NCBI GenBank assembly: GCA_963664015.2
Contig: CAXXLF010000001.1
Coordinates: forward strand, 736,001 to 800,000
DNA: 64,000 nt
Reading direction: 5' to 3'
From: Candidatus Binatia bacterium
GTDB taxonomy: Bacteria > Desulfobacterota > Binatia > UBA9968 > CAXXLF01
Shown: positions 30,847 through 51,016 of the stretch, one piece after another
Layout of the letters: every line of letters begins with the position of its first letter
Position numbering within the stretch: the first letter of the stretch is position 1
The notes under the pieces: model-generated
What the model saw: the letters and a program-made list of their open reading frames with translations, nothing else
Told to the model about the DNA's origin: nothing
Databases searched by the model: none
Made by a program: the position numbers and the translations under genes

Positions 30847-30914
30847 ACTTCTTTTTTATCCTCGCCTTTGAAAGTTTCTGTTGAATTCTAGATTACGGAA
30901 TAGGGAAACAGATG

Positions 30915-31135: not shown

Positions 31136-31173
31136 TTTGATATTCTTCTGTTGACCATTGTTTCAATAAGAAT

Positions 31174-32583
31174 CTAACGTCCTTTGCCGCCTGGTACGCT
31201 CAGAGTGATTCCATAGCGGTCCCAATCCCGCTCTACCTTGGCTCGAGCCTCGGCCTCGGGCTGACAGACAGCTGGAAAGCTCTTGGAATTGTAACGGGTA
31301 GCGTCGATGATCATCTTAGAACAGCGAGCGGGGCCCGCCTGTTCTTCCGGTGGCAAGGAGGGATCGAGAAAGATCCCCGTGACCTCCCGCAGGATCTCCA
31401 CATCACGGTGGGCCTGCACACGTGTAGCCACCGCCCACTCTACCGCCAGCGAGTCGGTGGGATCCACATCGTGGTCCACCACGGTCACGTGTTTAATGTG
31501 GCGCCCGCTGGGAGAACCCAGCACGGCCATCCCGACCATCTTGCCGTATCCCTCGTAGAGTTTCTCCACCGAGATAACCGCATGAAAGACACCACACCCC
31601 CCCTCGGGGAGATGAATTCCCCGGATGCCGGGCAGCTTGATGGCACGAAGGATCTCCGATTCCTTGCCGATCGCAGTCAGCACGTCGGTTTCATGGGGCG
31701 GAGCGCCTTGATAGGCCAGGTGCTGGATAAAATTCTTGCGATGGGTGATGGCCGTGATGTGAATCGTGGCACGGGGCAGTCTTGGACCGCCATAGTGACC
31801 GGTAAACTCTCCAAATGGACCTTCCTCGCGTTTTTCCGCAGGCCGAACCTCTCCTTCGATAACGATCTCTGCATCCGCAGGGACCTCCAACGGAACTGTT
31901 TTGCACTTGACCATCTCGATAGGTTTGCCGCGAAGCGCCCCGGCCATCGCGAGCTCATCGCTATCAAAAGGGAAAGGGGAGCAGGCAGCCATGACTACCC
32001 GGGGATCCGCCCCCATGGCAATTGCGACGGGAAACGGTTCATCGGGCGCCTGGCGATGCTGCAACATGATATGGGTATAAGGCCCCGACAGCAGTCCAAG
32101 GGTGTGATTATCATGCACCATGTTACGATAGACCCCTACATTGCGTTCGCCCGTGGTCGGGTCCTTGGTGATGTGGCACGAGAGGGTAAGGTAGGGACCA
32201 CCGTCACGTTCGTTTAATATGGGAGCCACGAGTTTGGTCAGGTCAGCCTCGTCTCCGAGCCAAACCTGTTCCTGACAGATTCCACTTTCGACGAGCACTG
32301 GAGGCAGTGGGTTGTTGGCACGACGGTTCCACACCTCATGGATCTCCTCTTGCTTGCACTCCATGGCCAGCGCGTAACGGCGCCGGGTCGCCAGCAGGTT
32401 GAATACGGTCGAAATATCTTTCCCTCCCGGCTTTTCGAACAGTAACGCCGGTCCGTATGCCTTCAGGCTCTTAACGCAGATCGCGCCAAGCTCCTGATTG
32501 AGATCGACAGGGATCTTCACACGAGCGAGTTCCCCCTCCTTTTCCAACAGGTCAATGAATTCGCGTAGTCCCTCAAAAGGCAT
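31174..32583 (-). CDS. UbiD family decarboxylase
   Basis: GPALLFE, DGGPY, NVGVYR, EGPFGEFTGHY, VDHDVD; catalytic Arg/Glu/Glu intact. Confidence 0.95.
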   Translation of the reverse strand: MPFEGLREFIDLLEKEGELARVKIPVDLNQELGAICVKSLKAYGPALLFEKPGGKDISTVFNLLATRRRYALAMECKQEEIHEVWNRRANNPLPPVLVESGICQEQVWLGDEADLTKLVAPILNERDGGPYLTLSCHITKDPTTGERNVGVYRNMVHDNHTLGLLSGPYTHIMLQHRQAPDEPFPVAIAMGADPRVVMAACSPFPFDSDELAMAGALRGKPIEMVKCKTVPLEVPADAEIVIEGEVRPAEKREEGPFGEFTGHYGGPRLPRATIHITAITHRKNFIQHLAYQGAPPHETDVLTAIGKESEILRAIKLPGIRGIHLPEGGCGVFHAVISVEKLYEGYGKMVGMAVLGSPSGRHIKHVTVVDHDVDPTDSLAVEWAVATRVQAHRDVEILREVTGIFLDPSLPPEEQAGPARCSKMIIDATRYNSKSFPAVCQPEAEARAKVERDWDRYGITLSVPGGKGR

Positions 32584-32624: not shown

Positions 32625-33746
32625 TCAACGACGGCGCATTACACTACGCAAGAACCCAACGACCTCATTACGTCGCATCACGTATTTTTCGGTGGACAAT
32701 TGGGGGTAGGTCATTCCCTCCGTCGGCACCAATTGTTCCAAAACGTGATCGTGGGGCACTCCACGCCGGAGACTAGCAAACCCTGAGCCCTTGCTCCACC
32801 GGATTTGACCTTCTGGCGAGAGGAGATAGTCGAGATAAACCATAAGGGCATTGGGGTGTGGCGGGTTTTTCATGGTGACCAGGGCCCCGTTTCCCGCCGT
32901 AATATAGGTCCCCTCTTTCATATCCTTGGGATTGAAATGCTTGAGCGGCAAACCCCTGCCGATCAGCTCGTTGGTCAAGACATCACTGGGGCCGATACCG
33001 ATGGGATTTTTACCCTTAGCGACAAAATCCAGGATCTGGCGGTCGTTCCCCGAGACCACCATGTTTTGACTGAACAGCTTCCGTATGAATTCCTTACCGA
33101 GGGAAGGGGTAATGTACCACAAGGTAGCGTTCCCCATCCCTCCCCCGGGCCTCGTGGGATCACGTAAGGCAATCTTATTCTTCCACTTGGGGTTCAAGAG
33201 GTCTTTCCATGACTTGATCCCGCTGGCGTCAACGACATCGGGGTTGTAGATGAACGGCGCCTTCACGTAGGCGCTCATGATGATAACGAATCTGCCAGCA
33301 CTATCCGCAAAGGTGTACTTTCCGCCGAGCCACGCTGACGCGTTTTTACTATTGGGACCGACGAGATGGGGCATGATGGGAGAAATGGCTTTGGCCGGCA
33401 TCAATCCCGTTATACCAGTAGTTGTACCCACCACCGCCAGGTCCGTCAGGAACTTCCGAGCTCCCTGCTCGTTGAGCACTCTTGCGGTGACCGTGGATCC
33501 CCGCATACCGCTGTGCTCCATCTTGATTTCGGGATACTTCTTCATGAATCCCCGGGTGAGTCCGTCTTTGGTCGCCGTGCCCTGCGGCCCAATTATTGAG
33601 ATTCGTCCTTCTTTCTTAGCCGCGGCCACGATCTTATCCCATTCCGCATCGGCCCACGCCGAAGCCGGTACGAGCAAAAGCCCGACCCCAAGAGCAAAAC
33701 TCAAGGCTGCAGCATAAAACATCGCAAATAAATTACCTCGCCTCAT
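32625..33746 (-). CDS. ABC transporter substrate-binding protein (AfuA/SBP_bac_6-like)
   Basis: Signal peptide, AAKKEG, DLLNPKWKNKI, PPHPNA. Confidence 0.92.
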   Translation of the reverse strand: MRRGNLFAMFYAAALSFALGVGLLLVPASAWADAEWDKIVAAAKKEGRISIIGPQGTATKDGLTRGFMKKYPEIKMEHSGMRGSTVTARVLNEQGARKFLTDLAVVGTTTGITGLMPAKAISPIMPHLVGPNSKNASAWLGGKYTFADSAGRFVIIMSAYVKAPFIYNPDVVDASGIKSWKDLLNPKWKNKIALRDPTRPGGGMGNATLWYITPSLGKEFIRKLFSQNMVVSGNDRQILDFVAKGKNPIGIGPSDVLTNELIGRGLPLKHFNPKDMKEGTYITAGNGALVTMKNPPHPNALMVYLDYLLSPEGQIRWSKGSGFASLRRGVPHDHVLEQLVPTEGMTYPQLSTEKYVMRRNEVVGFLRSVMRRR

Positions 33747-33798: not shown

Positions 33799-34903
33799 TT
33801 AGCGTCCCAGCGCTTTTCTTACAAAACTTACTATCTCAGGCTTCATGTCGATAGCGGCCTGGTCGTAGGTTTTGATCGATCCCGGGATTGGAACACGCCA
33901 GGGCGAATGGTCCGTAGGAACGTCCAGCCGGGCACTGATATACCCCGCCGCCTGAACGAAAGCGGTCTGGCCTTCCCTGGAGAGAAGCCAGTTCACATAG
34001 ACCTTGGCCGCGTTGGGATGGGGGGTCCGGGTAAAAACGGCGATGGACGCTGAGCCCGGGCTGATGTCCGAGCCTTCCTTGATCTTGCGCGGATCCACAA
34101 TGCGGATCGGTAGGCCCTGGGCAATCCTTGCCTCGGCCACAGAATCGGATGTCCCCGAGTAGGACCGGATACTTCTCCTGTCCAATGAGATCGATTTCTT
34201 GACGGTAATTCTTGATGATGAGTAGATTCTGGCGAGCCAGAGCACGAACAAATTCGGGGCCGAGAGCAGGGTGCATGTAAAAGAATCCGAAAGCCGCTTG
34301 ACCTGGGCCCGGTGTTCTGGGATCGTCGACAACGATCTTCCCCTTCCACTTTGGCTTCAACAGGTCTTTATACGACTTGATTTCCCCGGGCTTGACCAGT
34401 TTATTGCTCAGAAACAGTATGGCCCGTTGTGACGGCGCCATCACCAGCATTTGGCGGCCCGAATCGACGAATTCAATAGCACCGCCGCGCCAGTTCTTAG
34501 GATTTTTCACCTCGGCCGAGATGAGAAAGGGATCCATCGATTGAAACGCCCCCATGGGTATCAATGCCGTCAGGCCGGTCGTTGTCCCACCGATAAAGAC
34601 GTCCCACATGTAGTGACCAGCCCTCTGCTGGGCGCCGATCAGCGGTGAGGCACCGGAACCCCGTTCGCCCCGGTACTCGACTAAGATTCCGTATTTTTTC
34701 CGGAATGGCATAGTGAGGATATCCCGTCGATGAGACCCCGTCGGACCCATGACCGTGACCCGCCCCTCCTGTTGAGCGGCCTTCACGATGCCGTCCCAGT
34801 CCTGCTCTCCGGCAGCAATAGACACTCCCAAAACCGAAAGTCCTGTCACCAGGAATATCGTCCACAGGGTGACACTTAAAATAGAAAGGGTCTTCTTTTT
34901 CAT
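33799..34903 (-). pseudogene. ABC transporter substrate-binding protein, +1 frameshift near 34155
   Basis: An extra G in the run at 34153-34156. Removing it restores KYPVLLGTSDSVAEARI..PHPNAAKVYVNWLLS. Confidence 0.85.
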
Positions 34904-34985: not shown

Positions 34986-36632
34986 TCACCGGCCGATAGC
35001 GATATCCTTTTTTTCAATATCGGCGGTAACTGTCTTCTGGCGCTGGGCGGTCTTCTCCCCCACCTCGTGATACTTCCCTTCTACGATGAGCCGTGCGAAT
35101 TCGACCTGCTCCTCGCTCCAATTACCCAAACTGTACCCGTGCCATGGCTCCCGTAGTCTGGGCTGTGGCAGCTCTTTATGCTCCGCCCACATGGCCATGG
35201 CTCGCTCCATGTACTGCTTTTCCGGCAATCCCACAGGGGCGTACGCCCACTTTCTCGTCGCATTGAACAAGACCCGGCTGTGGTGGTGGTTCTGGAGCAA
35301 CGAGGAGCCATAAACCATTTGGCCATGACCCGAACCAGGGGGTGTACCAGAAGGGTCAAGAGCGGGGTTGCGGCCATGAATGATCTCAACGTCTAACTCG
35401 GGCCGGCATCGATAGGACATGGCCCAAAGGATCGCATCCTGGTCTCTAACATCGATATCACTGTCCACAATCACGATGTATTTGGAGCCTCCCATCAAAC
35501 CGGCTGCGGCATGGAGTACCGTCCAAGGGTCTACCCCCCTCTGGGGCTGCATTCGAATCAGGCACCATTCTCTGCCTCCGGTGCTGTCGGGAAAATGGAT
35601 GTCTTCTATAGGATAACCGGCACCGTAGCGGAGGTGATCGTACAACATGGCCGGATAGGTAAAGCTCAAAATCGTGTTGGAGTCGCTAGGATACATCCCA
35701 ACGGTGATCGGGGTAAAGATCGCGTTCTTCCGGTGGGTGATGGCCGTTACCTTGATGACGGGCAGGTAAGTTGATTCCGTCGACATGTAACCCGGGTATT
35801 CACCAAAGGGCGTGAGTTCCTCCGTGGTCTCAGTGGACATGAGGCCCTCGATGACGATCTCCGCAGTAGCCGGAACCTCCAGGGGAATCGTCTTGCACTT
35901 GACCAACTCCACCGGCTCACCCATGATCCCGCCAGCGACGGCCAGCTCATCGAATCTTCCGTAGGGGATGGGGGCTGAGGCCACGATCATGATGATCGGA
36001 GTCACTCCGATAACGATGGCCACCGGTAAAGGCTCCTTCCTTTGCCTCGCCTTGGGCCAGTGATAGGCCATGGCGTCATGAAAGACAGCCGAGCCCGACA
36101 CAATGCGGTCTCGTGCACGAAAGAAACCGTTATAGGCCCCCACATTGCGCATCCCCGTCTCAGGATCTTTGGTTATCATCGGGGTCCCTGTACGAATCAT
36201 GCAGCTGAAGCCGGGCTCCTCCACCGGAGCGGGCAACTCGTCAAGGCCCAACTCGGTAAGCTCTTTTCCCGTGTGCACTACTTCATGGACGGGACCGTCC
36301 TTGACCACGATGGGCTCGATGGGGTGAGCGATGCCTTCGTGCCACTTGTCCAGGGCCTCCCGCATGGACTCACAGCCCATGCCCCAGGCGACAAAATCCG
36401 GCGTGGCTCCGTAAACACCGGTGGCGACTCGCATAGGAAAGCGCTTCCCGTCGGCTCCTCTAACGTCATTGAACTGTAAAATTTTACGTTCTCCTTCGGG
36501 TAGACCACGCATCTGGACCCGAAACAGAGGCATCAGTTCCGTCTCTTTGTTGACTGGCTCAGTAAATATGTGCAGACGACCTCGCCGCTCAACTTCCGCC
36601 ATAAACTCCCTGAGGTCTTTATAGTATGGCAT
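34986..36632 (-). CDS. Divergent UbiD family protein
   Basis: YKDLREF, ITKDPETGMRNVG, PATAEIVIEG, PFGEYPGY, IVDSDID; C-terminal extension; start ATG 36632. Confidence 0.9.
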   Translation of the reverse strand: MPYYKDLREFMAEVERRGRLHIFTEPVNKETELMPLFRVQMRGLPEGERKILQFNDVRGADGKRFPMRVATGVYGATPDFVAWGMGCESMREALDKWHEGIAHPIEPIVVKDGPVHEVVHTGKELTELGLDELPAPVEEPGFSCMIRTGTPMITKDPETGMRNVGAYNGFFRARDRIVSGSAVFHDAMAYHWPKARQRKEPLPVAIVIGVTPIIMIVASAPIPYGRFDELAVAGGIMGEPVELVKCKTIPLEVPATAEIVIEGLMSTETTEELTPFGEYPGYMSTESTYLPVIKVTAITHRKNAIFTPITVGMYPSDSNTILSFTYPAMLYDHLRYGAGYPIEDIHFPDSTGGREWCLIRMQPQRGVDPWTVLHAAAGLMGGSKYIVIVDSDIDVRDQDAILWAMSYRCRPELDVEIIHGRNPALDPSGTPPGSGHGQMVYGSSLLQNHHHSRVLFNATRKWAYAPVGLPEKQYMERAMAMWAEHKELPQPRLREPWHGYSLGNWSEEQVEFARLIVEGKYHEVGEKTAQRQKTVTADIEKKDIAIGR

Positions 36633-36694
36633 CCCCTTCGTCTCCTTCCTCTTATCCTTTAACACAAGTCGTCATACAGAATTCACACTAATCC

Positions 36695-37786
36695 TTACCT
36701 CTTCATAATCTCTCTGAGCAGTCCCAACATAAGTGGCTTCGATTTCATTGCCTCTTCGGTATAGGTCCGGAGGCCCCCCTTCATCGGGTGGCGCCAGGAT
36801 TCTATGTGATCCTGAGGAATATCGTTCCGAAGGCTGGAAATGCCCGTGACTCTACTAAATTGTGTCTGCCCTTCCTTTGAGAGAATCCAGTTGATATAGA
36901 CCTTGGCTGCATTGGGATGGGGCGCTTTATTGACCAACATCAGACTGGCAGGACCCGGGCTTAAAGGTCCCCCTTCCTTCAACTGTTGGGGCGGAATCAT
37001 TGCGATGGGCACTCCCCGATTCATCAGATCCCTCGTCACCGTTTCAGCAGGCCCGAGCAGAATACTGAATTTCCCCTTACCCAGCATGTCGAGGGACTGA
37101 CGGTCATTGCGTAGAATCGTTAGGTTCTGCTTCATCAAAGCCCGGATGAAGTCGGGACCTAGCTGTGGATTCAGATAAAAGAACGTGAAAATGGATTGTC
37201 CGGGCCCCGGGCCCCGGGGGTCTCGGCCTACAATGATTTTCCCCTTCCACTTGGGATCCAAAAGATCCCTGAAGGCTTTAAACTCCTTGCCATTTACGAG
37301 TTTAGTGTTGATCACAAAGGCAGGTCTAGTCGTCAGTCCCAAGAGCAGATCGTAACGACGTGTCTTATCGGCGTACCAGAGGCCTCCATTCCGCCAATTT
37401 TTGGATTCCTTCACTTCAGGGAGAATCAACGCAGACGTAATCGGGTCCAAGGCGCCAGCGGGTATCATACCCGTAATGGCAGTAGTCGTCCCCTGAACAA
37501 AAACATCCCATAGGTATTTACCAGCGCGCCGCTCCCTCATTACACGGGGGATCATTTGCGACCCTCTCGCCGCCAGGTAGTTAACCCTCAAGCCATATTT
37601 TTTCTCGAACGGCAGAGTAAGGACCCGACGAAAATCGGCCCCAACCGTCGCACCCACAGAGACTGTGCCTTCTTTTTTCGCCGCCTGCAGGGTCTGTTCC
37701 CACTCTCCCGTCCAGCCATGGGTCGCGCTGACAAAGACCAAAATGGCGGCAAATGACATGAGAACAAAGCGATCTTTTCGAATCAT
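36695..37786 (-). CDS. ABC transporter substrate-binding protein (AfuA/SBP_bac_6-like)
   Basis: Signal peptide, AAKKEG, DLLDPKWKGKI, APHPNAAKVYINW; RBS GAGGAG before ATG 37786. Confidence 0.92.
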   Translation of the reverse strand: MIRKDRFVLMSFAAILVFVSATHGWTGEWEQTLQAAKKEGTVSVGATVGADFRRVLTLPFEKKYGLRVNYLAARGSQMIPRVMRERRAGKYLWDVFVQGTTTAITGMIPAGALDPITSALILPEVKESKNWRNGGLWYADKTRRYDLLLGLTTRPAFVINTKLVNGKEFKAFRDLLDPKWKGKIIVGRDPRGPGPGQSIFTFFYLNPQLGPDFIRALMKQNLTILRNDRQSLDMLGKGKFSILLGPAETVTRDLMNRGVPIAMIPPQQLKEGGPLSPGPASLMLVNKAPHPNAAKVYINWILSKEGQTQFSRVTGISSLRNDIPQDHIESWRHPMKGGLRTYTEEAMKSKPLMLGLLREIMKR

Positions 37787-37864
37787 GACTTTTCTCCTCT
37801 CCAAGCAGAAAAAGCAATGTTGGATTAGTATCTTAGGCCGTGTTTGGAACGAATTAGCTAGTTG

Positions 37865-37950
37865 CTCTAATAGTACGTTTCGGCTCGGTCTGTCAACCTA
37901 ACGATTTTGTCTCCAACTCTTGACAAGATGACCCCGCTCCACCTAGTTTC
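37865..37950. promoter_or_regulatory. Back-to-back putative sigma70 promoters for the SBP/UbiD operon and the Rieske operon
   Basis: Minus-strand TTGACA at 37891-37896; plus-strand TTGACA at 37920-37925 with TAGTTT 18 nt downstream. Confidence 0.5.
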
Positions 37951-38072
37951 GTAATTGTCTAGATCAATCTTCGGGGGGATTAACATCCTGCAAGTTAAGG
38001 GATAGAATTTAAAAAAAGGGCATTGTGAGAACCGAAGGCGAACGCCCGGCTAAGAGGACCAAAGAAGGAGAG

Positions 38073-39383
38073 ATGGCGACCGAGAATGACGACATACTGA
38101 CACGGACGGATCCAGGAACTCCATGCGGGGAGTTGATACGGCGCTACTGGCAGCCCGCGGCACTATCCGAGGAGCTGCCGACGGGTGGAGCTCCCCTGTC
38201 GGTTCGGTTGCTTGGTGAAGATCTGGTCCTTTTTCGTGATGAATCCGGAGACATCGGCCTCCTGGGGCTCCATTGCTGCCACCGTGGGGCGGACTTGAGT
38301 TACGGCCGCGTAGAGGACGGCGGCCTGAGGTGTATTTACCATGGCTGGCTCTACGATATTCACGGCCATTGCATTGATCAACCGGGAGAGCCCAATGGAA
38401 GGACACAACAACAAAAGATTCGCCATAAAGCCTACCCGTGCGTTGAGCGCAACGGTCTTATCTTTGCCTACTTGGGTCCAGGCGAACCGCCCCTGCTTCC
38501 CAACTATGAGTTCTTAGTCAATCCGGAAGAACACGTGTTCGTCACCAAGATCTTCAGCGAGTGCAATTACCTCCAGGCGAACGAGGGCAACATCGACCTG
38601 CTCCACGTATCGTTCCTCCATTACAGCAGCCGGGATCTGATGATCGAGAACAGCGCCAATCGCCAGGGAGTCGCCGGTTCTGTGGATGCACTGTGTCCCA
38701 GGGGATCGGCCCCGGAGATGGAGACGACAGAAGCCGAAATCGTCGACATCGGTTTACGCGTCTGCAAAATCCGGAACCTCGATCGGGACAACCTTTACAT
38801 TCGCGTGGGGACGCTGGTCCTCCCCAACCTATACGCTTTCCCCGCCGGCGGTTTGAACTGGCATGTCCCCATCGACGACACGCACCATTGGAAATACATC
38901 GTCTCGTTCGACCGGGACAAGCCCTACGACAAAGAGGCCATGCGTCGTAATCGCGACTCCTTTACCCCACCTCCGGACTACAGGCCGGTTTTGAACCGAT
39001 CCAACCGCTACCGCCAGGACCGCGCGTCCCTGAAGGCGGACAGTTATAGCGGAATCGATAAGATGAACTTTCCGGCCCAGGATCTATGCGTGACTGAAGG
39101 CGCAGGCCCTATCCAGGATCGTTCCAAAGAACACCTCATGGCCTCCGATGGACCCTTGGTGGCTGGCCGTAAGCTTCTCCATAGCGCCATTAGGGAGGTC
39201 TTGGACGGACACGATCCACCTGCCGTCGTGCATGACCCGGCAAAGAATAATTTCTCGACCATCGTCGCCACCAACGGCGTGATCCCTAAGTCTCAGGGCT
39301 GGAAGAACTACTGCCGGAAGTTGGTCACTGAGGGTCGTGGATGGGTCGGCAGGCCGAGCCTGACGGACCCGTTAGCTAAATAA
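38073..39383 (+). CDS. Rieske non-heme iron oxygenase alpha subunit (phthalate 4,5-dioxygenase/LigXa-like)
   Basis: Rieske CCHRGADL..CIYHGW; mononuclear Fe site EGNIDLLHVSFLH and QD; HVPIDD. Confidence 0.93.
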   Translation: MATENDDILTRTDPGTPCGELIRRYWQPAALSEELPTGGAPLSVRLLGEDLVLFRDESGDIGLLGLHCCHRGADLSYGRVEDGGLRCIYHGWLYDIHGHCIDQPGEPNGRTQQQKIRHKAYPCVERNGLIFAYLGPGEPPLLPNYEFLVNPEEHVFVTKIFSECNYLQANEGNIDLLHVSFLHYSSRDLMIENSANRQGVAGSVDALCPRGSAPEMETTEAEIVDIGLRVCKIRNLDRDNLYIRVGTLVLPNLYAFPAGGLNWHVPIDDTHHWKYIVSFDRDKPYDKEAMRRNRDSFTPPPDYRPVLNRSNRYRQDRASLKADSYSGIDKMNFPAQDLCVTEGAGPIQDRSKEHLMASDGPLVAGRKLLHSAIREVLDGHDPPAVVHDPAKNNFSTIVATNGVIPKSQGWKNYCRKLVTEGRGWVGRPSLTDPLAK

Positions 39384-39415
39384 GACTTTATCAAACACAC
39401 CTTAAGGAAGAAACA

Positions 39416-40642
39416 ATGGCAGATATATTAAGACTGGGAATCGTAGGACTGGGCATGGGTGCCGGCAGGGTTATCCCCGAGATCGCCAACCTTCCCTATA
39501 TCCGGCTAACCGCCGGCGCCGACGTTCGCCCCCACGCGGCCAAGCAGTTTCGAGAAGACTTTGGCGCCGAGGCTTACGAGAGCGTGGAGGAGATGTGCCA
39601 AAGTCCCAACGTCGACGCGGTCTATGTCTGCACCCCCCATGAATACCACGCCGAACATACGATCATCGCGCTGAAAAACAAAAAACACGTCATCGTGGAA
39701 AAACCTATGGCCGTTTCCATCGAGGAATGTGAAGCCATGAACCAGGCGGCGGAAGCCAATGGGGTGAAGCTCCTGTGCGGGCATACCCACAGCTTCGACC
39801 CACCGGTTCAAAAGATGGCTCAGGTCATTCGAGGCGGCGCCCTGGGCAAGCCACTCATGATCAACAGCTCCTATTATAAAAACTTCATTTACCGCCCCTT
39901 CTCAGATCACGATGTGAGCATGAGCCGCGGTATCGTCTTGAATCAGGGCCCCCATCAGGTCGATATCGTACGTTTACTGGGGGGCGGCCGGGTACGCAGT
40001 GTTCGGGCCATGGCCGGTGTGGGAGATCCAAGCCGAGGGAAACCACGGCCTGCGGAAGGCCACTACGTCTGCTATCTGGAGTTCGAGGACGGACTGCCCG
40101 CCAGCCTTGTTTTTAGCGGCTACGCCTATCTGGATTCGGCTGAGCTGGTTTGGGGTATAGGTGAAGGAGGACAACAGGTCGATCCCGAAGCCTTTGTCGG
40201 GGCCCACCGCTTTTTTAAAGAGATCGGCACCGGACCAGACCGGCAAAAGAAGATGGAGGAGTTGCTCGAATCTTGGCGCTACGGGGGCGCTAATGTAGGG
40301 GAATGGTTCCACGCCGGCAGTTCGGGGGCAATGCCCGGCAAGCGGCACCAGCCTTTCTTCGGTCTGACTATCGTGACCGGCGAAAAAGGCGACTTGCGTC
40401 AGTCGCCCGACGGGCTTTACCTTTACACGGAAGAAGGGCGCAGTGAGATTCCTATAGAGGCGGGCGCCCATGGTCGCGAGGCTGAGATGCGAGAACTATA
40501 CGAAGGCGTGATGGAGGGCCGCCCTATCTTCCACGACGGCCGATGGGGGGAAGCGACCATGGAAGTCTGTCTTGCGATCCTTCAGTCCACGGAAGAAAAA
40601 CGTGAGATCCTGATGTCCCATCAGGTCCCGGTACCGGTTTAG
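39416..40642 (+). CDS. Gfo/Idh/MocA oxidoreductase, phthalate cis-4,5-dihydrodiol dehydrogenase (OphB/Pht4)-like
   Basis: GIVGLG, VEKPMA, GHTHSFDPP, FIYRP, HQVDIVRLLGGGRVRSVRA; follows the Rieske gene. Confidence 0.88.
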   Translation: MADILRLGIVGLGMGAGRVIPEIANLPYIRLTAGADVRPHAAKQFREDFGAEAYESVEEMCQSPNVDAVYVCTPHEYHAEHTIIALKNKKHVIVEKPMAVSIEECEAMNQAAEANGVKLLCGHTHSFDPPVQKMAQVIRGGALGKPLMINSSYYKNFIYRPFSDHDVSMSRGIVLNQGPHQVDIVRLLGGGRVRSVRAMAGVGDPSRGKPRPAEGHYVCYLEFEDGLPASLVFSGYAYLDSAELVWGIGEGGQQVDPEAFVGAHRFFKEIGTGPDRQKKMEELLESWRYGGANVGEWFHAGSSGAMPGKRHQPFFGLTIVTGEKGDLRQSPDGLYLYTEEGRSEIPIEAGAHGREAEMRELYEGVMEGRPIFHDGRWGEATMEVCLAILQSTEEKREILMSHQVPVPV

Positions 40643-40678
40643 ACCGGCGCAAGAGAAACTACAGCGAGGAGAACGAGT

Positions 40679-42136
40679 GTGATAGATGACCTGCGGACCT
40701 TTCTTGAAAATCTCGATCACTGCGGGGACCTCAAGCGGATCAGCGGCGCCGATCTCAATATTGAAATGGGGGCGATTTCCGAACTGTCCTTTCAACATCA
40801 CGGACCGGCCCTTCTCTTCGATCGAATCGATGGTTACCCCTCAAACTACCGCATCGCCTCCAACGTTTGCAGCACCAGGGAAAGGTCGCTGCGCGCCGTC
40901 GGCATGGATCCCCGACTATCCGAGGTCGACGCCATGCAGCAATTCAAAAGAAGATGGACCGCATACAAACCCATCGGCCCGATTTTTGTCAAAGACGGGC
41001 CATTGATGGAAAACACCCTGAGTGGCGAGGACGTCGATCTCTTAAAGATTCCCGTGCCCGTTTGGCATGAACTGGATGGGGGACCGTATATCGGCACGGG
41101 ACTGGCCGTCATCGTCAAGGACCCGGAAAGCGGTTGGGTCAATCTAGGGAGCTACCGTCTTCAGCGGCACGACCGTAACACCACGGGGATTTTCTCCGAA
41201 CCGGGCAATGACGGGACAAAGATTATGCGCAAGTACTGGGCCGCCGGTAAGGCGTGCCCTGTGGCGGTTTCCGTCGGCCCCGAACCCATCGTTTTTCTCA
41301 CTGCCTCCGGTTGTACGGGCTGCCCCAAGGGCTTCCCCGAGTACGACTATGCGGGATTCGTCATGGGAGAACCCATTTCTGTGATCGAAGGCCCGTTAAC
41401 GGGGCTACCCATTTCCGCCCATTCGGAAATTGCCTTCGAGGGGGAGATCCCCCCACCCCAGGAGGAGATGAGACCCGAAGGCCCCTTTGGCGAGTGGACG
41501 GGCTACTACATGGGCGGCTCTCTCCCCGAACCGGTTATCCGAGTCCAGGCCCTGTACCATAGAACGGATCCAATCCTCTTTGGAGCCTCACCCCTCAAGC
41601 CCCACGATGAAGCCTATTCATTCTCGCTGCCCATGTTGTTTGTCACAGGGTTATGGAGTCGCTTGGAGGGAATGGGTTTACCCATTCGCCGGGTGACGAA
41701 TCCGGTCAAGATGGGCGTGACCGTAATCAGCATTCACCAGCAGGGAAAAGACGATGTCGAGCTAACGATGAAGGCCTTAGAGCAGGTCGGTGGACCCCAC
41801 CGGCTTTTTATTCTGGTCGACGACGATGTTAATCCGGAGGATCCACGGGATGTGCTGTGGGCTGTCAGCACACGTTTCGACCCGAGTTCGGGGACCCGGG
41901 TCAGCACCACGGAAAGCGAATGGCTGCTGGATCCCTTACGCACCGTAGAGCAGCGAACCCAGCGTTCCCCCCAACCCTACAAGCGCCTGATCATCAACGG
42001 GTGTCGCCCCTATGAGCGCATCAAGGACTTCTCGAACGTTAACCTCCTCAGTGAAGGACGGTGCAACGAAACGTGGGAAAAATGGCAGATGCAGGATTGG
42101 ACGGATCGGCGAATCAAGGATCAATCAACGGATTAA
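40679..42136 (+). CDS. UbiD family decarboxylase
   Basis: GPALLFD, WHELDGGPYIGT, NLGSYR, EGPFGEWTGYY, VDDDV. Confidence 0.93.
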   Translation: MIDDLRTFLENLDHCGDLKRISGADLNIEMGAISELSFQHHGPALLFDRIDGYPSNYRIASNVCSTRERSLRAVGMDPRLSEVDAMQQFKRRWTAYKPIGPIFVKDGPLMENTLSGEDVDLLKIPVPVWHELDGGPYIGTGLAVIVKDPESGWVNLGSYRLQRHDRNTTGIFSEPGNDGTKIMRKYWAAGKACPVAVSVGPEPIVFLTASGCTGCPKGFPEYDYAGFVMGEPISVIEGPLTGLPISAHSEIAFEGEIPPPQEEMRPEGPFGEWTGYYMGGSLPEPVIRVQALYHRTDPILFGASPLKPHDEAYSFSLPMLFVTGLWSRLEGMGLPIRRVTNPVKMGVTVISIHQQGKDDVELTMKALEQVGGPHRLFILVDDDVNPEDPRDVLWAVSTRFDPSSGTRVSTTESEWLLDPLRTVEQRTQRSPQPYKRLIINGCRPYERIKDFSNVNLLSEGRCNETWEKWQMQDWTDRRIKDQSTD

Positions 42137-42152
42137 AAAAAAGGAGTCACCC

Positions 42153-43601
42153 ATGGGCTATAAGTCCCTCGGCGAATTTATCGATGCCGCGCGAGCAATC
42201 GGCGAAGTCAAGGTCATTCACGGCGCCGATCTCGATACTGAGGTCGGCTGTCTCACCGAGCTGGCAGCCGAGCAGAACGGACCATTACTACTGTTCGACC
42301 AGTTCAAAGGGTTTCCGACGGATTTTCGCATTGCCAGTAACGTTGTCCGCAACAGCCGGCGTCGCTATGCCCTGGCCGTCGGCTTACCAGTGGACGCCCA
42401 TCCGATTGAATTGGTGCGAAAACTCAGGGAACAGCGGCACACTCAGAAACCCTTCCCCCCCGTAGAAGTCAACGACGGCCCCGTGCTCGAGCATCGGCTC
42501 ACTGGCGAAGACGTCGATGTCGAGAAGTTTCCGGCTCCCAAGTGGCATTCGGGTGATGGTGGGCGATATATCGGGACCGGTGATATTGTTATAATGCGGG
42601 ACCCCGAGTCCGGCTGGATCAATTTCGGGACCTATCGGGTCTCCGTACAGGGAAAAGACCGACTCAGCATCTGGATCATCAAGCACAAGCGCGGTCGTAT
42701 CATTGCCGAAAAGTACTGGGCCAATGGGCAGCCCTGCCCGGTTGCAGTTGTCGTTGGTTGCGACCCGCTGACCTTTATGTCGGGCACGAGCCGATTGAAA
42801 TACGATCACGCGGGGGCCCTGCACGGTGCCTCGGTAGAAGTCGTCAAGGCACCGCTAACAGGACTGCCAATCCCAGCGCATGGGGAACTCGTATTCGAGG
42901 GGGAAATCCCCTCGCCCGAGGAGGAAAGTGTCCAAGAGGGTCCCTTTGGCGAATGGCCAGGCTACTATGCCCATAGCGATCGGGAATGCGTGGTTCGGGT
43001 GAAACAAATCGTGCACCGGAACTCTCCCATCGTCAACGGGAGCCCCCCTCTGCGGCCCCTGCTTGGATTTCGTGATGACGCGCCAACTCTGCCAATAGCC
43101 ATATGGGACCATCTCGATCGATCGGGCATTTCTGATGTGGTTGGAGTCTGGGGGCATGCTAACTCGCTCATGATTGTCGTGGCCTTGAAGCAGCGCTACG
43201 CCGGCCATGCCCAGCAAGCACTCATTGCCACCGCGGGGCTACGCAGTTCGGCCAGTATGAACACCTACTTTGTCACCGTTGATGAGGATATCGATCCTTC
43301 TGATTTGAGGGACGTTCTATGGGCCATGTGCACGCGGGTCAACCCGTCTACTGCCGTGGACGTTATCAATAACGCCTGGACCAGCGACCTCGATCCAAGG
43401 CTGACACCGGAGCAAAAATCCTCCGGAGACTACACCATGGGACGATTGCTGATCAATGCGTGCAAGCCCTTTGCATGGAAGGATTCTTTTCCCAAGACCA
43501 ATATCTTCACCGCCGAAGAACGAAAGCACGTCCGGGAGAGATGGACCGGGGTGCTCCAGGAGATCGAGGAGCAAGCCAGGAAGAACACCCAGACCCGCTA
43601 A
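42153..43601 (+). CDS. UbiD family decarboxylase
   Basis: RBS AAGGAG before ATG 42153; DGGRYIGT, NFGTYR, EGPFGEWPGYY, KQRYAGHA, VDEDIDP. Confidence 0.95.
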   Translation: MGYKSLGEFIDAARAIGEVKVIHGADLDTEVGCLTELAAEQNGPLLLFDQFKGFPTDFRIASNVVRNSRRRYALAVGLPVDAHPIELVRKLREQRHTQKPFPPVEVNDGPVLEHRLTGEDVDVEKFPAPKWHSGDGGRYIGTGDIVIMRDPESGWINFGTYRVSVQGKDRLSIWIIKHKRGRIIAEKYWANGQPCPVAVVVGCDPLTFMSGTSRLKYDHAGALHGASVEVVKAPLTGLPIPAHGELVFEGEIPSPEEESVQEGPFGEWPGYYAHSDRECVVRVKQIVHRNSPIVNGSPPLRPLLGFRDDAPTLPIAIWDHLDRSGISDVVGVWGHANSLMIVVALKQRYAGHAQQALIATAGLRSSASMNTYFVTVDEDIDPSDLRDVLWAMCTRVNPSTAVDVINNAWTSDLDPRLTPEQKSSGDYTMGRLLINACKPFAWKDSFPKTNIFTAEERKHVRERWTGVLQEIEEQARKNTQTR

Positions 43602-43685
43602 TGGCCTAAGGGGTTTCGCCTGGGAACCTATCTAGTCGCGTTGTGCTCAATCAGGCCGGACTTTTATTTGGGTCCGAGTTCAGCT

Positions 43686-45131
43686 TTACTCCAGCTCCTT
43701 TTTCCATTTCTCGGTTATTCGATCGCGCAACTCAGGGCTCAACTTATTGACCGGGGGAAACTGGTCAATCCAGGCGTAAGGTCGGCAAGCGTTGATGATG
43801 GCCCGACTATTAACATAGTCGTTTGCCTCCCTTTTGGCCGGTGGCAAGGTAGGATCCAGCGGTGTACTCCAACAACCGTCCACAACCGTCATGGCCGTTT
43901 TCGGGTCGCAACGGGTCGAGATAGCCCAGATCACCTCTCCCAGATCCGTCGGATCGATATCCTCATCAACCACCACTATGAATCGGCCATGGTAGTTTCC
44001 GGCACGAGAGGCCAGGGCGGCCAACGCCGCCTGTTGGGCGTGTCCGTGATACCGCTGTTTGAGCGAGACTACGAAAAATGGAGCACCGCCACCCGGAGCC
44101 GAACCGCCACAGAAGGCCCACACACCTTGAATATCCGGCACGTCGGCCTTCTCCAGGTAGTTCCAGATAGCCGCCGCTCCGATGGGGACTCCAAACGTCA
44201 GACTAGGCGGTCTCAAGGGCGGCGCCCCTGCGATAATGGGATTGTTCCGAAAATAGAGCGCCTTGACTCGTATGATGGGCTCCGTCTTCGCCCCATGGGC
44301 ATAGTAGCCCGGCCATTCGCCAAAGGGACCCTCGACGCGACTCTCTTCACTAGGTGGAGGAACCTCGCCTTCAATGGCGATTTCCGCGTGTGCTGGAATC
44401 GGTAGACCTGTGACCTTTCCACGTACAACCTCGACGGGTTCCTGACGTAACCCCCCGGCATAATCAAACTCGGATACCCCGAAGGGAACCGATAGCCCTG
44501 CAGCAAGCCACATGGTCGGGTCCTGGCCGAAGGTCACCGCCACCGGGCAGGCCTTTCCCCTGGCCCAGTACTTTTCCCGAATGATACGAGCGTGATGTCC
44601 CGGAGAGATATAGGTTCCCAGGATTTGTTTGTCGTGGACCTGGACACGGTAAATCCCTACGTTGACGTAGTCGTTGTCCGGGTCACGTGTGATGACACAG
44701 CATCCCGTTCCGATATATCGACCGCCGTCCTGTTCATGCCAACGGGGCGTAGGAAAGGAGGTCATATCTATATCCCCACCGGTACGCTCGTTTTCCAACA
44801 AGGGGCCGTCCGAGACGAATTTCGGCGGGATGGGTTTCAGATCGGCAAGGATCTCACGCCATCGCCACACAATATCTCGCTTGGATGCGTTTGGGGACAT
44901 CCCGACCATCAAGGCTGCCCGGCGCGGGTGCAGAACCAAATTGGACGCCACCCGAAATTGGGCTGGATAGTCGGGTATCTGATCGAACAAAAGCAGCGGG
45001 GACGGTTCCCGATAGGCAAAGATCTCGGTCAAGGCACCGATCTCCAGGTCCCAGTGGGCACCATGGATTTCTTTGACTTCCCCTATCTCCTTCGCCGCAT
45101 CGATGAATTCTCGCAAATCTTTAAACGCCAT
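43686..45131 (-). CDS. UbiD family decarboxylase
   Basis: FKDLREF, DGGRYIGT, NVGIYR, EGPFGEWPGYY, KQRYHGHA, VDEDIDP. Confidence 0.95.
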   Translation of the reverse strand: MAFKDLREFIDAAKEIGEVKEIHGAHWDLEIGALTEIFAYREPSPLLLFDQIPDYPAQFRVASNLVLHPRRAALMVGMSPNASKRDIVWRWREILADLKPIPPKFVSDGPLLENERTGGDIDMTSFPTPRWHEQDGGRYIGTGCCVITRDPDNDYVNVGIYRVQVHDKQILGTYISPGHHARIIREKYWARGKACPVAVTFGQDPTMWLAAGLSVPFGVSEFDYAGGLRQEPVEVVRGKVTGLPIPAHAEIAIEGEVPPPSEESRVEGPFGEWPGYYAHGAKTEPIIRVKALYFRNNPIIAGAPPLRPPSLTFGVPIGAAAIWNYLEKADVPDIQGVWAFCGGSAPGGGAPFFVVSLKQRYHGHAQQAALAALASRAGNYHGRFIVVVDEDIDPTDLGEVIWAISTRCDPKTAMTVVDGCWSTPLDPTLPPAKREANDYVNSRAIINACRPYAWIDQFPPVNKLSPELRDRITEKWKKELE

Positions 45132-46563: not shown

Positions 46564-47358
46564 ACCGACTTTCCCGGAGTGGCAACCATGTTCCGCCGTC
46601 TCCTAGGCTCCCCCGCGTTCCCTGCGACGGACCTATCGAGTCTTCGCCTTGGCGTTTTCGGGGCCGCCCCCTGCCCTTGGGACTTGGCACGGGAATGGAA
46701 AGAACGAACCAGGACCAGAATTTTACGGGGATACGGGATGACCGAGCTCTTTCGCCCGATTTCTCACCTTGCCTCTGAATCGATGGAGCTTCCGGAGGCT
46801 GTGGGTCGACCGGTACCAGGCGTCGAGATCCGCATTGTGGATGATACCGGGGGATCGGTTCCGGTTGGACAGATCGGTGAGCTCTTGATCAAGAGCCCTG
46901 CGACAATGGCCGAATACCTGAACAACCGGTCAGATACACAAGCTGTTCTAGTCGACGGCTGGTTTAGCACTGGCGACCTTGCTTTGCTTTTACAGGACGG
47001 ATTCGTTCAAATTGCGGGGCGAAAGGAAGAGAGGATCCTCCGCGGGGGCTATTCCATCTTTCCCCAGGAAGTGGAGGCCGTCCTGCTCTCACATCCGGCA
47101 ATCGCCGAGGCCGGCGTGGTTGGCATCCCCAGTCCGGACATAGGAGAGGAGGTCGCGGCGTTTATTACCCTTAAACAAGGGGTAAGGGCCACCGTCGAAG
47201 AAATTGAGGCCCACTGCAAGGAACACCTTGCCGGGTACAAGTATCCGCGGCAGATTACGATTCTGGAAAGCCTCCCTAAAGGAACCACGGGAAAGATTAT
47301 CAAATCACGCCTAAGGAACCAGCCCCTTTCTGGACCAACCCAAAAGTCGTCGCCTTAA
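46564..47358 (+). pseudogene. 5'-truncated acyl-CoA synthetase (AMP-binding) fragment
   Basis: GYGMTE, STGDL, GRKEE and LPKGTTGKI are present. The N-terminal half with the TSGTTG P-loop is absent, and an in-frame TAA precedes TDFPGVATMF. Confidence 0.85.
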
Positions 47359-47487
47359 TCTTAGCTCTGTAAACGTTCGGGATGAGAGCATAGAGGTCCC
47401 GACCCTTGAGTTCGAGGTCATTTGACATCACATCCCCTAATCGATAGGCTTTCACGAAACTCAGCTCCGGAACGGAAGCAACTAGCA

Positions 47488-48777
47488 ATGGCTCAGACCT
47501 CCCGAGAATTTCAAATATTTGCCAAACCCGTTGGCGCCATATGCAATCTGGACTGCCACTATTGCTACTACTTGAAAAACGAAGATTTCTACCCAAAAGG
47601 GTCCTTTCGGATGCCCGACGATGTATTGGAGAAATACATCGTCCAGACCATCGAAGCCACACCGACTCCGATCATTCGCTTTTCCTGGCACGGCGGCGAG
47701 CCCACTCTCCTGGGTTTGGACTTCTTTCGTAAGACCGTCGAATTACAAAAAAAGCATCAGCCGTTCGACCGAAAGATTCTCAACGGGATCCAGACCAATG
47801 GGGTCACCCTCAACGACGAATGGTGCCGCTTTTTTAAAAACGAAGGCTTTCATGTTGGCATCAGCATCGACGGCCCCAAGGAATTGCACGATCTGTATCG
47901 GGTAACCAAAGGCCAAAAACCAACCCACAAATCGGTCATGCAAGGATACCGCCTTTTACGCCAGCACCATGTCCCGGTGGACCATCTCTGCGTGATCAAC
48001 GACCAAAATGTCCGCCACCCCACGGCGGTGTACCGATTCTTCAAAGAGATCGGCGCCGAATACCTTACGTTTTTACCCCTGGTGGAGCGAAGCAAGGAAA
48101 CCGAAAGCGGGGTGAGCACACGCACGGTGCCGGCTGAAGCCTTCGGCACATTTCTTTGCACGGTCTTCGACGAGTGGGTCCGAAAGGATGTCGGCCGGAT
48201 CATGGTACAGATCTTCGATGAAGCGGCACGGTCGGCCTACGGCCTTGAACACGCGCTCTGCATTTTTCGGGAAACCTGCGGTGACGTACCTGTCCTAGAA
48301 CATAACGGGGACCTTTTCTCCTGCGATCACTTCGTCGACCATCCCTACCATTTGGGGAATATTCAGGAGGCCTCCCTGACCACAATGATCGAGAGCGAGC
48401 AACAAAAAAAGTTCGGCGAAGACAAGCGAGACACGCTGCCTCGCTACTGCAGGGAGTGTGAGGTACGCGCTCAGTGTAACGGCGGCTGCCCTAAGGACCG
48501 TTTCATTCGAACTCCCGACGGTGAAGAAGGGCTCAACTACCTCTGTGCGGGCTTCAAAAAGTTTTTCAACTATAGCCTTCCATTTTTGGAGAAGATGGTT
48601 TCCTTGGATGTCGCCGGCGAACCCCTAGAGAAGCTCATGACCGCCGTACGAGCCGAAGATGCCGCCAAGGCATCAAACAGCCCCCGCCGTAATGATCCCT
48701 GCCCCTGCGGTAGTGGTCAAAAGTACAAAAAATGCTGCGCCAGTAAGCAGTCTCCGTACACCCCTACTACACTCTAA
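47488..48777 (+). CDS. Anaerobic sulfatase maturase-like radical SAM/SPASM protein with a C-terminal SEC-C motif
   Basis: CNLDCHYC, WHGGEP, SCDHFV, CRECEVRAQCNGGCPK, NYLCAG, RNDPCPCGSGQKYKKCC; TTGACA-17-TAGGCT promoter at 47422. Confidence 0.93.
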   Translation: MAQTSREFQIFAKPVGAICNLDCHYCYYLKNEDFYPKGSFRMPDDVLEKYIVQTIEATPTPIIRFSWHGGEPTLLGLDFFRKTVELQKKHQPFDRKILNGIQTNGVTLNDEWCRFFKNEGFHVGISIDGPKELHDLYRVTKGQKPTHKSVMQGYRLLRQHHVPVDHLCVINDQNVRHPTAVYRFFKEIGAEYLTFLPLVERSKETESGVSTRTVPAEAFGTFLCTVFDEWVRKDVGRIMVQIFDEAARSAYGLEHALCIFRETCGDVPVLEHNGDLFSCDHFVDHPYHLGNIQEASLTTMIESEQQKKFGEDKRDTLPRYCRECEVRAQCNGGCPKDRFIRTPDGEEGLNYLCAGFKKFFNYSLPFLEKMVSLDVAGEPLEKLMTAVRAEDAAKASNSPRRNDPCPCGSGQKYKKCCASKQSPYTPTTL

Positions 48778-49598: not shown

Positions 49599-51016
49599 AT
49601 GAACCGGGAAGTAGAAGTTGCCATTTTTGGAGCGGGGATCGCCGGCATTTCGGCCGTTCGTGAGGTCCGAAGGATCACTCAGGACTACGTGATCATTAAC
49701 GGCGGGCACTACGGCACCACCTGTGCGCGGGTGGGATGTATGCCTTCAATGGTTTTGATTCAGGTAGCTAACGATTTCCATCGTCGTCATATTTTTTCGA
49801 CTCTGGGAATCCACGGTGGGGAGAATCTTGCAGCCGATATTCCCGCAGTCCTGCGCCACTCCCGCCCCTCAGGGATCGCTTCGTCGGCAGTGTGATGAAA
49901 GACATGGAAGAGTTGGGATATCATAACATTCAAGGATACGCCGAGTTTGTCGAGCCCAATGTGCTAGAAGTGGACACTATGATCCTGTAGGCAGACAGAA
50001 TTGTCCTGGCGACCGGATCACGGCCCTTCATTCCCCCACCGTGGCAACCTTTTGCTTCACGTTTGATAACCAGCGACGATTTTTTCGAACGCGACGATCT
50101 ACCGCCGACTCTGGCCATGGTCGGTCTCGGAATCATAGGATTGGAACTGGATCAGGCGTTGCACCGTTTACGCATCAAGACAACCTGCGTGGGCCGAAAC
50201 AAATTCATCGGTGGCCTGACTGATCCGAATGTAAATAAATATGCGATCGCTGCGATGAGCCGGGAAATGGACTTTTACCCAGGCCAGGAGTCCGAGATAG
50301 AACCCAATGAAGACAAGTTTAGCGTCACTTTTGGAGACCGGAGTGTTGTCGTGGACGGTATCCTGGCAGCCCTGGGGCGAAGGCCTACCCTAGAGGGCCT
50401 TGGGATGGAAAAGCTCGGAGTCAAACTCGACGCCCATGGACTCCCTCCGTTCAATACCCAGACCATGCAAATAGGAAACTTCCCCATATTTCTGGCGGGT
50501 GACATGAAAGGAGAACGACCAACCTTGCATGAGGCTGCAGACGAGGGTCGTATCGCCGGATATAATAGTGTCCGCCAGGTTCCCTCTACGTTCAGCCGCC
50601 GGGCCCGTCTGAACATCACCTTCTCTCATCCGAACATAGCGGTAGTTAGCCGCTCCTATGCCAGCCTTAAAGACACGACTTACTCCATTGGCGAGGTAAA
50701 ATTCGATGGCCAGGGACGATCACTCGTAATGGCGGAGAACTCGGGCACCTTGAGGGTCTATGGGGACACTCAATCGGGTAAATTACTGGGCGCAGAGATG
50801 ATGGCCCCAGCCGGGGAACACCTCGCCCATCTCTTCTCTTGGGTCATCCAAAGAGACTTGACTGTTTTTGAGGTCGTGCAATTGCCCTATTATCACCCGG
50901 TGGTTGAGGAGGGCCTGCGTACTGCCTTACGAGACCTGGCAAGGAAGGTAGAATCGACCCGTCCCCAATTTGAGTTGGCCCTTTGCGGAGAGAGTGGAAT
51001 CGAATGTTTGAGCTGA
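49599..51016 (+). pseudogene. Dihydrolipoamide dehydrogenase-like flavoprotein disulfide reductase, interrupted
   Basis: GAGIAG, GTTCARVGCMPS, ATGSRP and YYHPVVEE motifs; frameshift near 49865 and TAG at 49988-49990. Confidence 0.88.

Follow-up and report, generated by a model that had tools for sequence, protein, structure and literature searches.

A four-gene unit that encodes a Rieske oxygenase alpha subunit, an oxidoreductase of the Gfo/Idh/MocA family (GFO) and two UbiD-family proteins was analysed in a 64,000-nucleotide stretch of a Candidatus Binatia genome (hereafter the window, G000:C1:736001-800000; the assembly has 3.51 Mb in two contigs and is 97% complete). G000 denotes the host genome and C1 and C2 its contigs, other G and L numbers denote comparison genomes and loci, and in gene orders R stands for Rieske, G for GFO, U1 and U2 for UbiD-1 and UbiD-2, and SBP for solute-binding protein. 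All four genes lie on the plus strand: the Rieske gene at 38073-39383 (436 aa; ATG after AAGGAG; Pfam Rieske, 5.6e-19, and LigXa_C, 1.9e-29), the oxidoreductase gene at 39416-40642 (408 aa; ATG after AAGGAAG; Pfam GFO_IDH_MocA, 4e-29, and C-terminal domains), UbiD-1 at 40679-42136 (485 aa; GTG after GAGGAG) and UbiD-2 at 42153-43601 (482 aa; ATG after AAGGAG), the latter two each with UbiD_N, UbiD and UbiD_C domains. A ribosome-binding site is found ahead of every start, and the intergenic gaps are 32 nt (R-G), 36 nt (G-U1) and 16 nt (U1-U2). In the original prediction, a Rieske subunit, a dihydrodiol dehydrogenase and two UbiDs had been read as co-oriented genes with gaps of 16-36 nt, and open reading frames (ORFs), Pfam domains and solved relatives all agree with it; the four genes are a real, conserved predicted operon. 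The intergenic region 37805-38072 separates it from a divergent operon on the minus strand that includes genes for an SBP and a further UbiD (UbiD-4). A sigma-70-like site at 37980-38008 on the plus strand (TTAACA-17-TAGAAT) is a consensus match only; neither the promoter scan (2 promoter-like sites versus a shuffle mean of 2.6) nor the terminator scan (9 terminator-like sites versus 6.4) exceeded what shuffles give, and no clear terminator was seen behind UbiD-2. NCBIfam equivalog names for the four proteins were rejected because all matches are sub-threshold.

The best solved relatives of the Rieske protein, all over the full length, are 9ina (3.8e-68), 7fjl (3.9e-64) and 7fhr (1.3e-62), the first two being the isophthalate dioxygenase (IPDO) and the phthalate dioxygenase (PDO) of Comamonas testosteroni KF1 according to the accessible parts of the papers describing them. 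By similarity, it is assigned to the phthalate-family (alpha3-type) oxygenases of the PDO/IPDO clade. Its pocket was mapped by pairwise alignments to PDO and IPDO, by the residues given in the accessible parts of the two papers, and by an alignment of 24 paralogous sequences. The predicted Fe ligands H178, H183 and D337 align with the reference ligand positions and are invariant in 24/24 aligned sequences. As far as the accessible text of these papers goes, PDO-KF1 binds carboxylate by Ser179, Ser182, Arg207 and Arg244, with Phe280 and Phe339 stacking, and the pocket of IPDO-KF1 is formed by G172, T175, R234, I246, F249, H257, I294 and F333, of which H257 is a ligand-binding residue for the meta carboxylate. 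In the window protein, R244 corresponds to the conserved Arg of both enzymes (PDO R244, IPDO R234), H264 to IPDO H257, V179 to IPDO V178 (kept; S182 in PDO) and F333 to PDO F339, i.e., the stacking Phe is kept. PDO S179, S182 and F280 are replaced by L176, V179 and I280, and IPDO G172, T175 and F249 by Asn, Leu and Ala (F249 = A258). Across the 24-sequence alignment, R210, R244 and H264 hardly vary among the Rieske sequences of the UbiD-coupled subclade (see below) and its relatives but do vary in distant paralogues, and positions 176 and 179 vary inside the subclade. The pocket appears to lack the PDO residue set of an o-phthalate 4,5-dioxygenase: because it combines phthalate-type with isophthalate-type carboxylate-binding residues (the PDO residues Ser179, Ser182 and Phe280 missing, the isophthalate-type His present), the substrate is probably not o-phthalate. 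We infer an acid held by two or three basic residues, with a specificity that would differ among paralogues; an aromatic di- or tricarboxylate, or a fused-ring acid, seems more likely.

The dehydrogenase has as its best solved relative PDB 7wzd, a '4,5-dihydroxyphthalate dehydrogenase' (8.2e-77, residues 5-397 of 408), and its Gfo/Idh/MocA domains together with this full-length similarity place it among predicted dehydrogenases of the phthalate-dihydrodiol type. The closest solved relative of both UbiDs is 7pda (UbiD-1: 1.6e-98, 334 bits; UbiD-2: 3.2e-157, 527 bits), which is PhdA, the phenazine-1-carboxylic acid decarboxylase of Mycobacterium fortuitum (accessible part of PMC10850782). UbiD-1 carries the motifs NLGSYR and EGPFGE and UbiD-2 the motifs NFGTYR and EGPFGE, the second Glu of EGPFGE corresponding to the catalytic Glu269 of PhdA when the six-residue offset of the PDB chain is allowed for. 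A single UbiX gene was found in the genome (238.9 bits versus a cut-off of 108.9), and by domains, motifs and the presence of UbiX both proteins are UbiD-family members and predicted decarboxylases of the type that uses prenylated flavin mononucleotide (prFMN). Glu269 apart, we take the metal/Arg motif N-x-G-x-Y-R plus the acid pair of EGPFGE to be the Arg/Glu/Glu catalytic set of the family. None of the window ORFs scanned against Pfam (those of at least 150 aa and four shorter ones) is a phenazine gene.

The oph/pht phthalate pathway shares with the window operon the Rieske clade, the Gfo/Idh/MocA-type dehydrogenase and the oxygenase-dehydrogenase-decarboxylase logic, but it has the decarboxylase Pht5/OphC where the window operon has two UbiDs, and a dedicated reductase in the cluster where the window operon is without a Fer2 or NAD_binding_1 match; on predicted gene content, the window operon would not be classed as an oph/pht phthalate operon. 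Genome-wide profile searches gave no Fer2 or NAD_binding_1 match inside the window, so that the earlier observation of a missing reductase or ferredoxin holds for these two families. Classical decarboxylases are encoded elsewhere in the host genome. The ORF G000:C2:419915-420892 matches PDB 9jp7, a '4,5-dihydroxyphthalate decarboxylase' (7.8e-56, residues 1-317 of 325). It shares its cluster with a GFO gene (C2:415562-416788), a Rieske gene (C2:416826-418076) and another Pht5-like ORF, and a third Pht5-like ORF is located near this canonical-looking cluster (G000:C2:412538-420892). Several of the host's Pht5-like ORFs adjoin Rieske genes, and 0 of all 15 are inside the window. A mixed cluster (C1:948292-953332) has the order GFO-Rieske-Pht5like-UbiD. 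Judged by similarity, the host has both kinds of predicted decarboxylase beside Rieske-dehydrogenase pairs, and the UbiD version is a true alternative in one organism. The original prediction had proposed a variant of the phthalate route or a different substrate altogether; the pocket makes o-phthalate unlikely, but the placement of UbiDs in the decarboxylase slot is plausible and a fair reading, its best support being the canonical Pht5-type clusters in the same genome. As to ring cleavage, R-U modules, both paralogous and orthologous ones, have LigB and alpha/beta-hydrolase genes at their flanks, and the divergent operon includes a conserved bicupin.

Gene order was compared in other genomes, which, being related, are non-independent samples. 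In G002 (same family, another genus), UbiD5-SBP3-UbiD4 is divergent from R-G-U1-U2 (76-87% identity), with the luciferase-like monooxygenase, the TetR regulator, the bicupin and the split thiamine pyrophosphate (TPP) enzyme of the window upstream and a TctA tricarboxylate-type transporter downstream. The metagenome contig L119 has UbiD4-SBP1 divergent from R-G-U1-U2 (76-85% identity). In Binatia family f3, G030 encodes on one strand LigB, Rieske (62%), GFO (53%), a cupin and a UbiD-1 relative (65%), and onward on the same strand an alpha/beta-hydrolase, an SBP, an ATP-binding cassette (ABC) ATPase, a permease, a 194-aa ORF and a UbiD-2 relative (65%); by coordinates, G034 and G040 of f3 have a UbiD-1 relative ~0.8-1.2 kb downstream of the R-G pair. 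The layout UbiD1like-SBP-...-UbiD2like is common to six loci (L026, L027, L031, L032, L033 and L075), and L122 has R-G-bicupin-UbiD1like. A second recurring layout, UbiD-Rieske-GFO, is shared by the host itself (C1:973714-979045), G001 and six genomes of f3, and Rieske-UbiD pairs without GFO occur in G002, G004, L120 and the host (C1:816699-823419); a UbiD-1 paralogue (71% identity) is located directly behind another Rieske gene at G000:C1:816699-818132. The four-gene synteny that had been suggested as a check was thus recovered in two Binatia families and a metagenome contig, and the genes are associated in two families or more, in several different orders. Among 80 loci anchored on UbiD-2 relatives, 14 contain a Rieske homologue. 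In two loci from metagenome-assembled genomes (MAGs) of Dehalococcoidia, a Rieske gene is directly upstream of a UbiD gene (L061:6589-9482 and L066:543-3681, gap <150 nt). For four PhdA-like genes from outside this Binatia lineage (51-56% identical; L028, L029, L030 and L043), the loci fetched contain neither a Rieske nor a GFO match. An alphaproteobacterial MAG locus shows the order UbiD-Rieske-UbiD-UbiD with gaps <150 nt (L073:7878-13890).

The stretch was also found in host-labelled sequencing runs and in seawater metagenomes. One run yielded a 31.6-kb contig that shows no difference over the 7.6 kb compared and may be the source of the present assembly. Seawater run X7 contains a strain ~98.7% identical, with contigs that span 39017-42109 and 42127-44125 and join R-G-U1 and UbiD-2 with UbiD-3, respectively; 40 of its 89 differences from the window were classed (28 synonymous, 11 non-synonymous and 1 intergenic), a pattern that fits purifying selection. 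This strain has an extra G behind 39364, 19 nt ahead of the Rieske stop codon, and either the C-terminal residues of the predicted Rieske protein differ between the strain and the window or one of the two sequences is erroneous. RNA-labelled runs X18-X23 contained next to no words of the stretch.

The host genome shows a large expansion of the gene families concerned. It has 52 UbiD-domain matches (48 UbiD ORFs of at least 400 aa), 59 homologues of the window Rieske protein (50 of at least 350 aa), 9 GFO homologues, 52 ORF matches to the window SBPs, 45 bicupins, 37 Amidohydro_2 proteins, 24 xanthine-dehydrogenase-type large subunits and 15 LigB matches; intradiol dioxygenases number 0 in the genome. 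In the order to which G000 belongs, 41 genomes including G000 were searched, and each has from 21 to at least 57 UbiD matches; in a sample of 60 other genomes of the phylum, 57 had at most 7 first-look UbiD candidates and three had 54-60. A same-strand UbiD gene within 1.6 kb accompanies 7 of the 8 closest Rieske sequences (460 bits or more, with the Rieske gene of the window among them and one partner UbiD being a fragment) versus 5 of the 51 others, i.e., the subclade of the window Rieske is specifically UbiD-coupled. Six of the nine host GFO homologues adjoin a Rieske gene. In a shuffle test (greedy set of 3255 ORFs, same-strand neighbours with a gap of at most 300 nt, 2000 label shuffles), Rieske-UbiD neighbours were observed 6 times against a shuffle mean of 1.09 (6 reached in 1/2000 shuffles), Rieske-GFO neighbours 5 times against 0.18 (5 reached in 0/2000) and Rieske-Pht5-like neighbours 3 times against 0.30 (3 reached in 4/2000), figures that overstate independence because catabolic genes cluster anyway. 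The Rieske-UbiD association is beyond chance. The single variant phthalate operon of the original prediction gives way to a different picture, with ~50 UbiDs in the genome: the four-gene unit belongs to a large, lineage-specific system made up of several Rieske-UbiD modules.

Around the operon, the window contains further genes of the same kinds, all on the minus strand. UbiD-3 (43686-45131; motifs intact) is convergent with the operon and is not kept at this site in G002. The divergent operon starts with SBP-1 (36695-37804; exported, with a signal peptide; 81% identity in L119), behind which UbiD-4 (34986-36665; 85-87% in G002, G004 and L119) is a variant with the motif NVGAYN, in which Asn replaces the motif Arg, with the first Glu of EGPFGE missing and with a C-terminal extension of ~100 aa; the same Y-N change was seen in one other host UbiD ORF (NAGMYN, C1:184508-186169). 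Further along are SBP-2 (33836-34903) and SBP-3 (32625-33746), both exported solute-binding proteins with visible signal peptides, UbiD-5 (31174-32583; motifs intact; 86-88% in G002 and G004), a split TPP-dependent decarboxylase (TPP_N 30334-30846, TPP_C 29738-30337) adjoined by a bicupin dioxygenase-like protein (28511-29680), in the same order in G002, a further SBP (27133-28212), and a TetR/CecR-type regulator (26191-26856) and a luciferase-like monooxygenase (24963-26081), both kept in G002. The split TPP enzyme resembles, below cut-off, the alpha and beta subunits of sulfopyruvate decarboxylase, and a second copy is present at G000:C2:686577-687769. Two candidates were rejected: a small 100-aa ORF (30856-31158) as a UbiD partner subunit, which has no family match, no paralogue and no room in G002, and an NMT1_3 ORF (23080-24060) as a Pht5-like enzyme, which is TAXI-SBP-like instead. 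The window's UbiD genes comprise five full and two broken copies in total. Split or truncated genes occur at 2808-3864, 18809-19887, 46579-47358, 50063-51016, 60412-61089 and 3-668, and comprise an Ldh_2 gene in two overlapping ORFs, an Amidohydro_2 gene in two ORFs, the two broken UbiD genes, an AMP-binding enzyme without its N-terminal two thirds and a Pyr_redox_2 protein without its start; these lesions suggest frameshifts or decaying genes. Downstream of the truncated AMP-binding gene, the plus-strand ORF at 47422-48777 encodes a radical SAM protein that has a SPASM domain and carries a C-terminal SEC-C motif.

Among characterised UbiDs, PhdA is similar to both window proteins and has the catalytic Glu in a common EGPFGE, but it comes from a different phylum and acts on unhydroxylated tricyclic acids (phenazine-1-carboxylate, before any oxygenation, and anthracene-1-carboxylate). 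The hydroxyarylic acid decarboxylases of the family, AroY (for protocatechuate) and VdcC/BsdC, decarboxylate para to a ring hydroxyl, which is the chemistry proposed here, but they are much more distant in sequence than PhdA (AroY 5o3m: 1.4e-25 and 9.1e-28; VdcC 7ae4: 3.2e-37 and 1.9e-43, for UbiD-1 and UbiD-2, respectively). The phthaloyl-CoA and isophthaloyl-CoA decarboxylases, as described in the accessible parts of the sources, are likewise UbiX-dependent members of the family and cleave off a phthalate carboxyl group, but they need a CoA ligase or transferase and belong to the oxygen-independent benzoyl-CoA route, whereas the window operon has an O2-dependent oxygenase and is without a CoA-activating gene. 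In the accessible part of a 2026 review of phthalate degradation, UbiD is placed in the anaerobic CoA-dependent route only, and a 2019 review, in its accessible part, calls it unclear whether dihydroxyphthalate decarboxylases belong in the UbiD superfamily. A marine parallel is offered by SAR202 Chloroflexota, in which up to 62 paralogues of the alpha subunit of ring-hydroxylating dioxygenases (RHDs), mostly annotated as phthalate 4,5-dioxygenase, have been reported by authors who doubt that phthalate is the substrate; UbiD coupling is not mentioned in the accessible text (Saw et al. 2020, PMC6946804). The literature search, supplements aside, found no aerobic UbiD step with dihydroxyphthalate in the accessible texts and no pathway of this kind for UbiD in Dehalococcoidia or in dissolved organic matter, or for trimellitate or benzenepolycarboxylates; no paper combining Binatota and UbiD was found.

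Taking these results together, we lean towards the reading that the four genes are an operon for the O2-dependent catabolism of a carboxylated aromatic compound in a marine bacterium, with UbiDs replacing Pht5/OphC. An exported SBP from the divergent operon would capture the substrate, ring dihydroxylation by the Rieske oxygenase would draw electrons from a reductase whose gene lies elsewhere, and the Gfo/Idh/MocA enzyme would re-aromatise the resulting cis-dihydrodiol to a catecholic (poly)carboxylate; the two prFMN-dependent UbiDs would then remove one or more carboxyl groups, in the slot of the cofactor-free Pht5/OphC, and the product would pass to extradiol or cupin-type ring cleavage. We infer the order of the steps, and the substrate, from gene content and similarity; the two UbiDs may carry out a sequential double decarboxylation or may act on different substrates.

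Several findings weigh against this route. The only Fer2-FAD_binding_6-NAD_binding_1 reductase gene found (C2:482930-483923; L105:2431-3424) is broken, lying in three frames with an in-frame stop, which is either an assembly error or a pseudogene. An adjacent GFO gene is present in only 2 of the 8 subclade Rieske genes, so the dihydrodiol route may not be general in the subclade. In the orthologous locus of G004 (G004:C5), G-U1-U2 is intact and the Rieske gene is deleted, leaving upstream of GFO a remnant that corresponds to protein residues 397-431 (L109:11182-11286). Relatives of UbiD-1 and of UbiD-2 in G002 are each paired with their own Rieske gene, and these separate pairings favour two independently acting enzymes. 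The third basic residue of the pocket is less secure than the other two: R210 is the counterpart of PDO R207 by the PDO alignment only, in an ambiguous loop, and the IPDO alignment, with the published equivalence of R207 and IPDO L198 (accessible part of that paper), shifts the position six residues earlier. RNA run X14 covers a small share of the stretch, and the sole RNA evidence consists of two 151-nt contigs, both inside UbiD-2. Finally, the nearest characterised relative of UbiD-2 takes a non-hydroxylated acid. The original prediction had a UbiD act on the hydroxylated acid, but UbiD-2 is nearest to PhdA, an enzyme for a non-phenolic tricyclic acid, and is not of the AroY type.

The likeness to PhdA would be explained directly if the UbiDs acted first, i.e., if an imported polycarboxylate, fused-ring or heteroaromatic acid were decarboxylated and the Rieske oxygenase and dehydrogenase then attacked the product. 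The retention of G-U1-U2 without Rieske in G004 is in keeping with such an order, as are the relatives of UbiD-1 and UbiD-2 that flank ABC importer genes in family f3; but the Rieske pocket retains a carboxylate-binding Arg and His, so its own substrate would still be an acid, and the four PhdA-like genes outside the lineage stand in loci without Rieske or GFO. We regard this order of events as rather unlikely. Quite improbable, in our view, is that a UbiD acts on the non-aromatic cis-dihydrodiol, an alpha,beta-unsaturated acid, so that decarboxylation and dehydration give a phenol without a dehydrogenase. The six of eight subclade Rieske genes without an adjacent GFO, the recurrence of R-U pairs without G in G002, G004 and L120, and the 1,3-dipolar cycloaddition mechanism of prFMN proposed for PhdA and Fdc1 are compatible with it, but a dehydrogenase that resembles the phthalate dihydrodiol enzyme over its full length is in fact encoded in the window operon. 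We know of no UbiD that decarboxylates a cis-dihydrodiol, although no search was aimed at such a reaction, and this also counts against the explanation.

The presence of two UbiDs side by side could also mean that UbiD-1 and UbiD-2 are subunits of a hetero-oligomeric (de)carboxylase like phenylphosphate carboxylase alpha/beta. The beta subunit of that enzyme is the best NCBIfam model for both proteins (245 and 268 bits), and relatives of the two co-occur in two families. Both scores, however, are far under the cut-off of 469, both proteins have full motifs, paralogues of the U1 and U2 types occur singly, each beside its own Rieske gene, no conserved small gamma/delta-type subunit gene was found (the 100-aa ORF has no space in G002), and the context is aerobic; this makes the arrangement very unlikely, and identity with phenylphosphate carboxylase alpha/beta (TIGR02723/TIGR02724) was rejected on the sub-cut-off scores and the lack of conserved small-subunit genes. 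Chance adjacency without a functional link has to be considered in a genome in which ~1.5% of the genes are UbiDs, with five full and two broken copies in the window and ~50 in all, and G004 lost the Rieske gene and kept the rest of the operon. This explanation is already disfavoured and hardly credible, given an association conserved across genera and families, the subclade-specific coupling (7/8 versus 5/51) and the shuffle test.

If the favoured reading of an oxygenase-dehydrogenase-UbiD operon is extended to the lineage, the massively expanded Rieske-UbiD system of marine Binatia, together with the similar modules of Dehalococcoidia, might degrade polycarboxylated aromatic matter, a proposal that we put forward tentatively and consider doubtful. 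Benzene tri- or polycarboxylates from oxidised lignin or from dissolved black carbon would be examples of such substrates. Up to three basic residues (Arg, Arg and His) could bind an ortho-plus-meta tricarboxylate, dihydroxylation would follow, and the pair of prFMN enzymes would take off two carboxyl groups successively, giving a protocatechuate-like compound; the ~50 UbiD paralogues, served by a single UbiX, would cover other substitution patterns.

UbiD enzymes function in ubiquinone synthesis, in anaerobic degradation of aromatic compounds and as a few detoxifying decarboxylases. The operon described here points to an undescribed, oxygen-dependent removal of carboxyl groups from aromatic acids, in which prFMN enzymes built into an oxygenase-initiated pathway would have a new role, replacing a cofactor-free decarboxylase. 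The presence of the classical and the UbiD versions in one genome would be a natural comparison of two solutions. If the substrates are carboxyl-rich aromatics of marine dissolved organic matter, these modules would supply testable gene candidates in a section of the carbon cycle that lacks known enzymology, and biocatalysis could draw on the expanded family as a large natural collection of aromatic (de)carboxylases.

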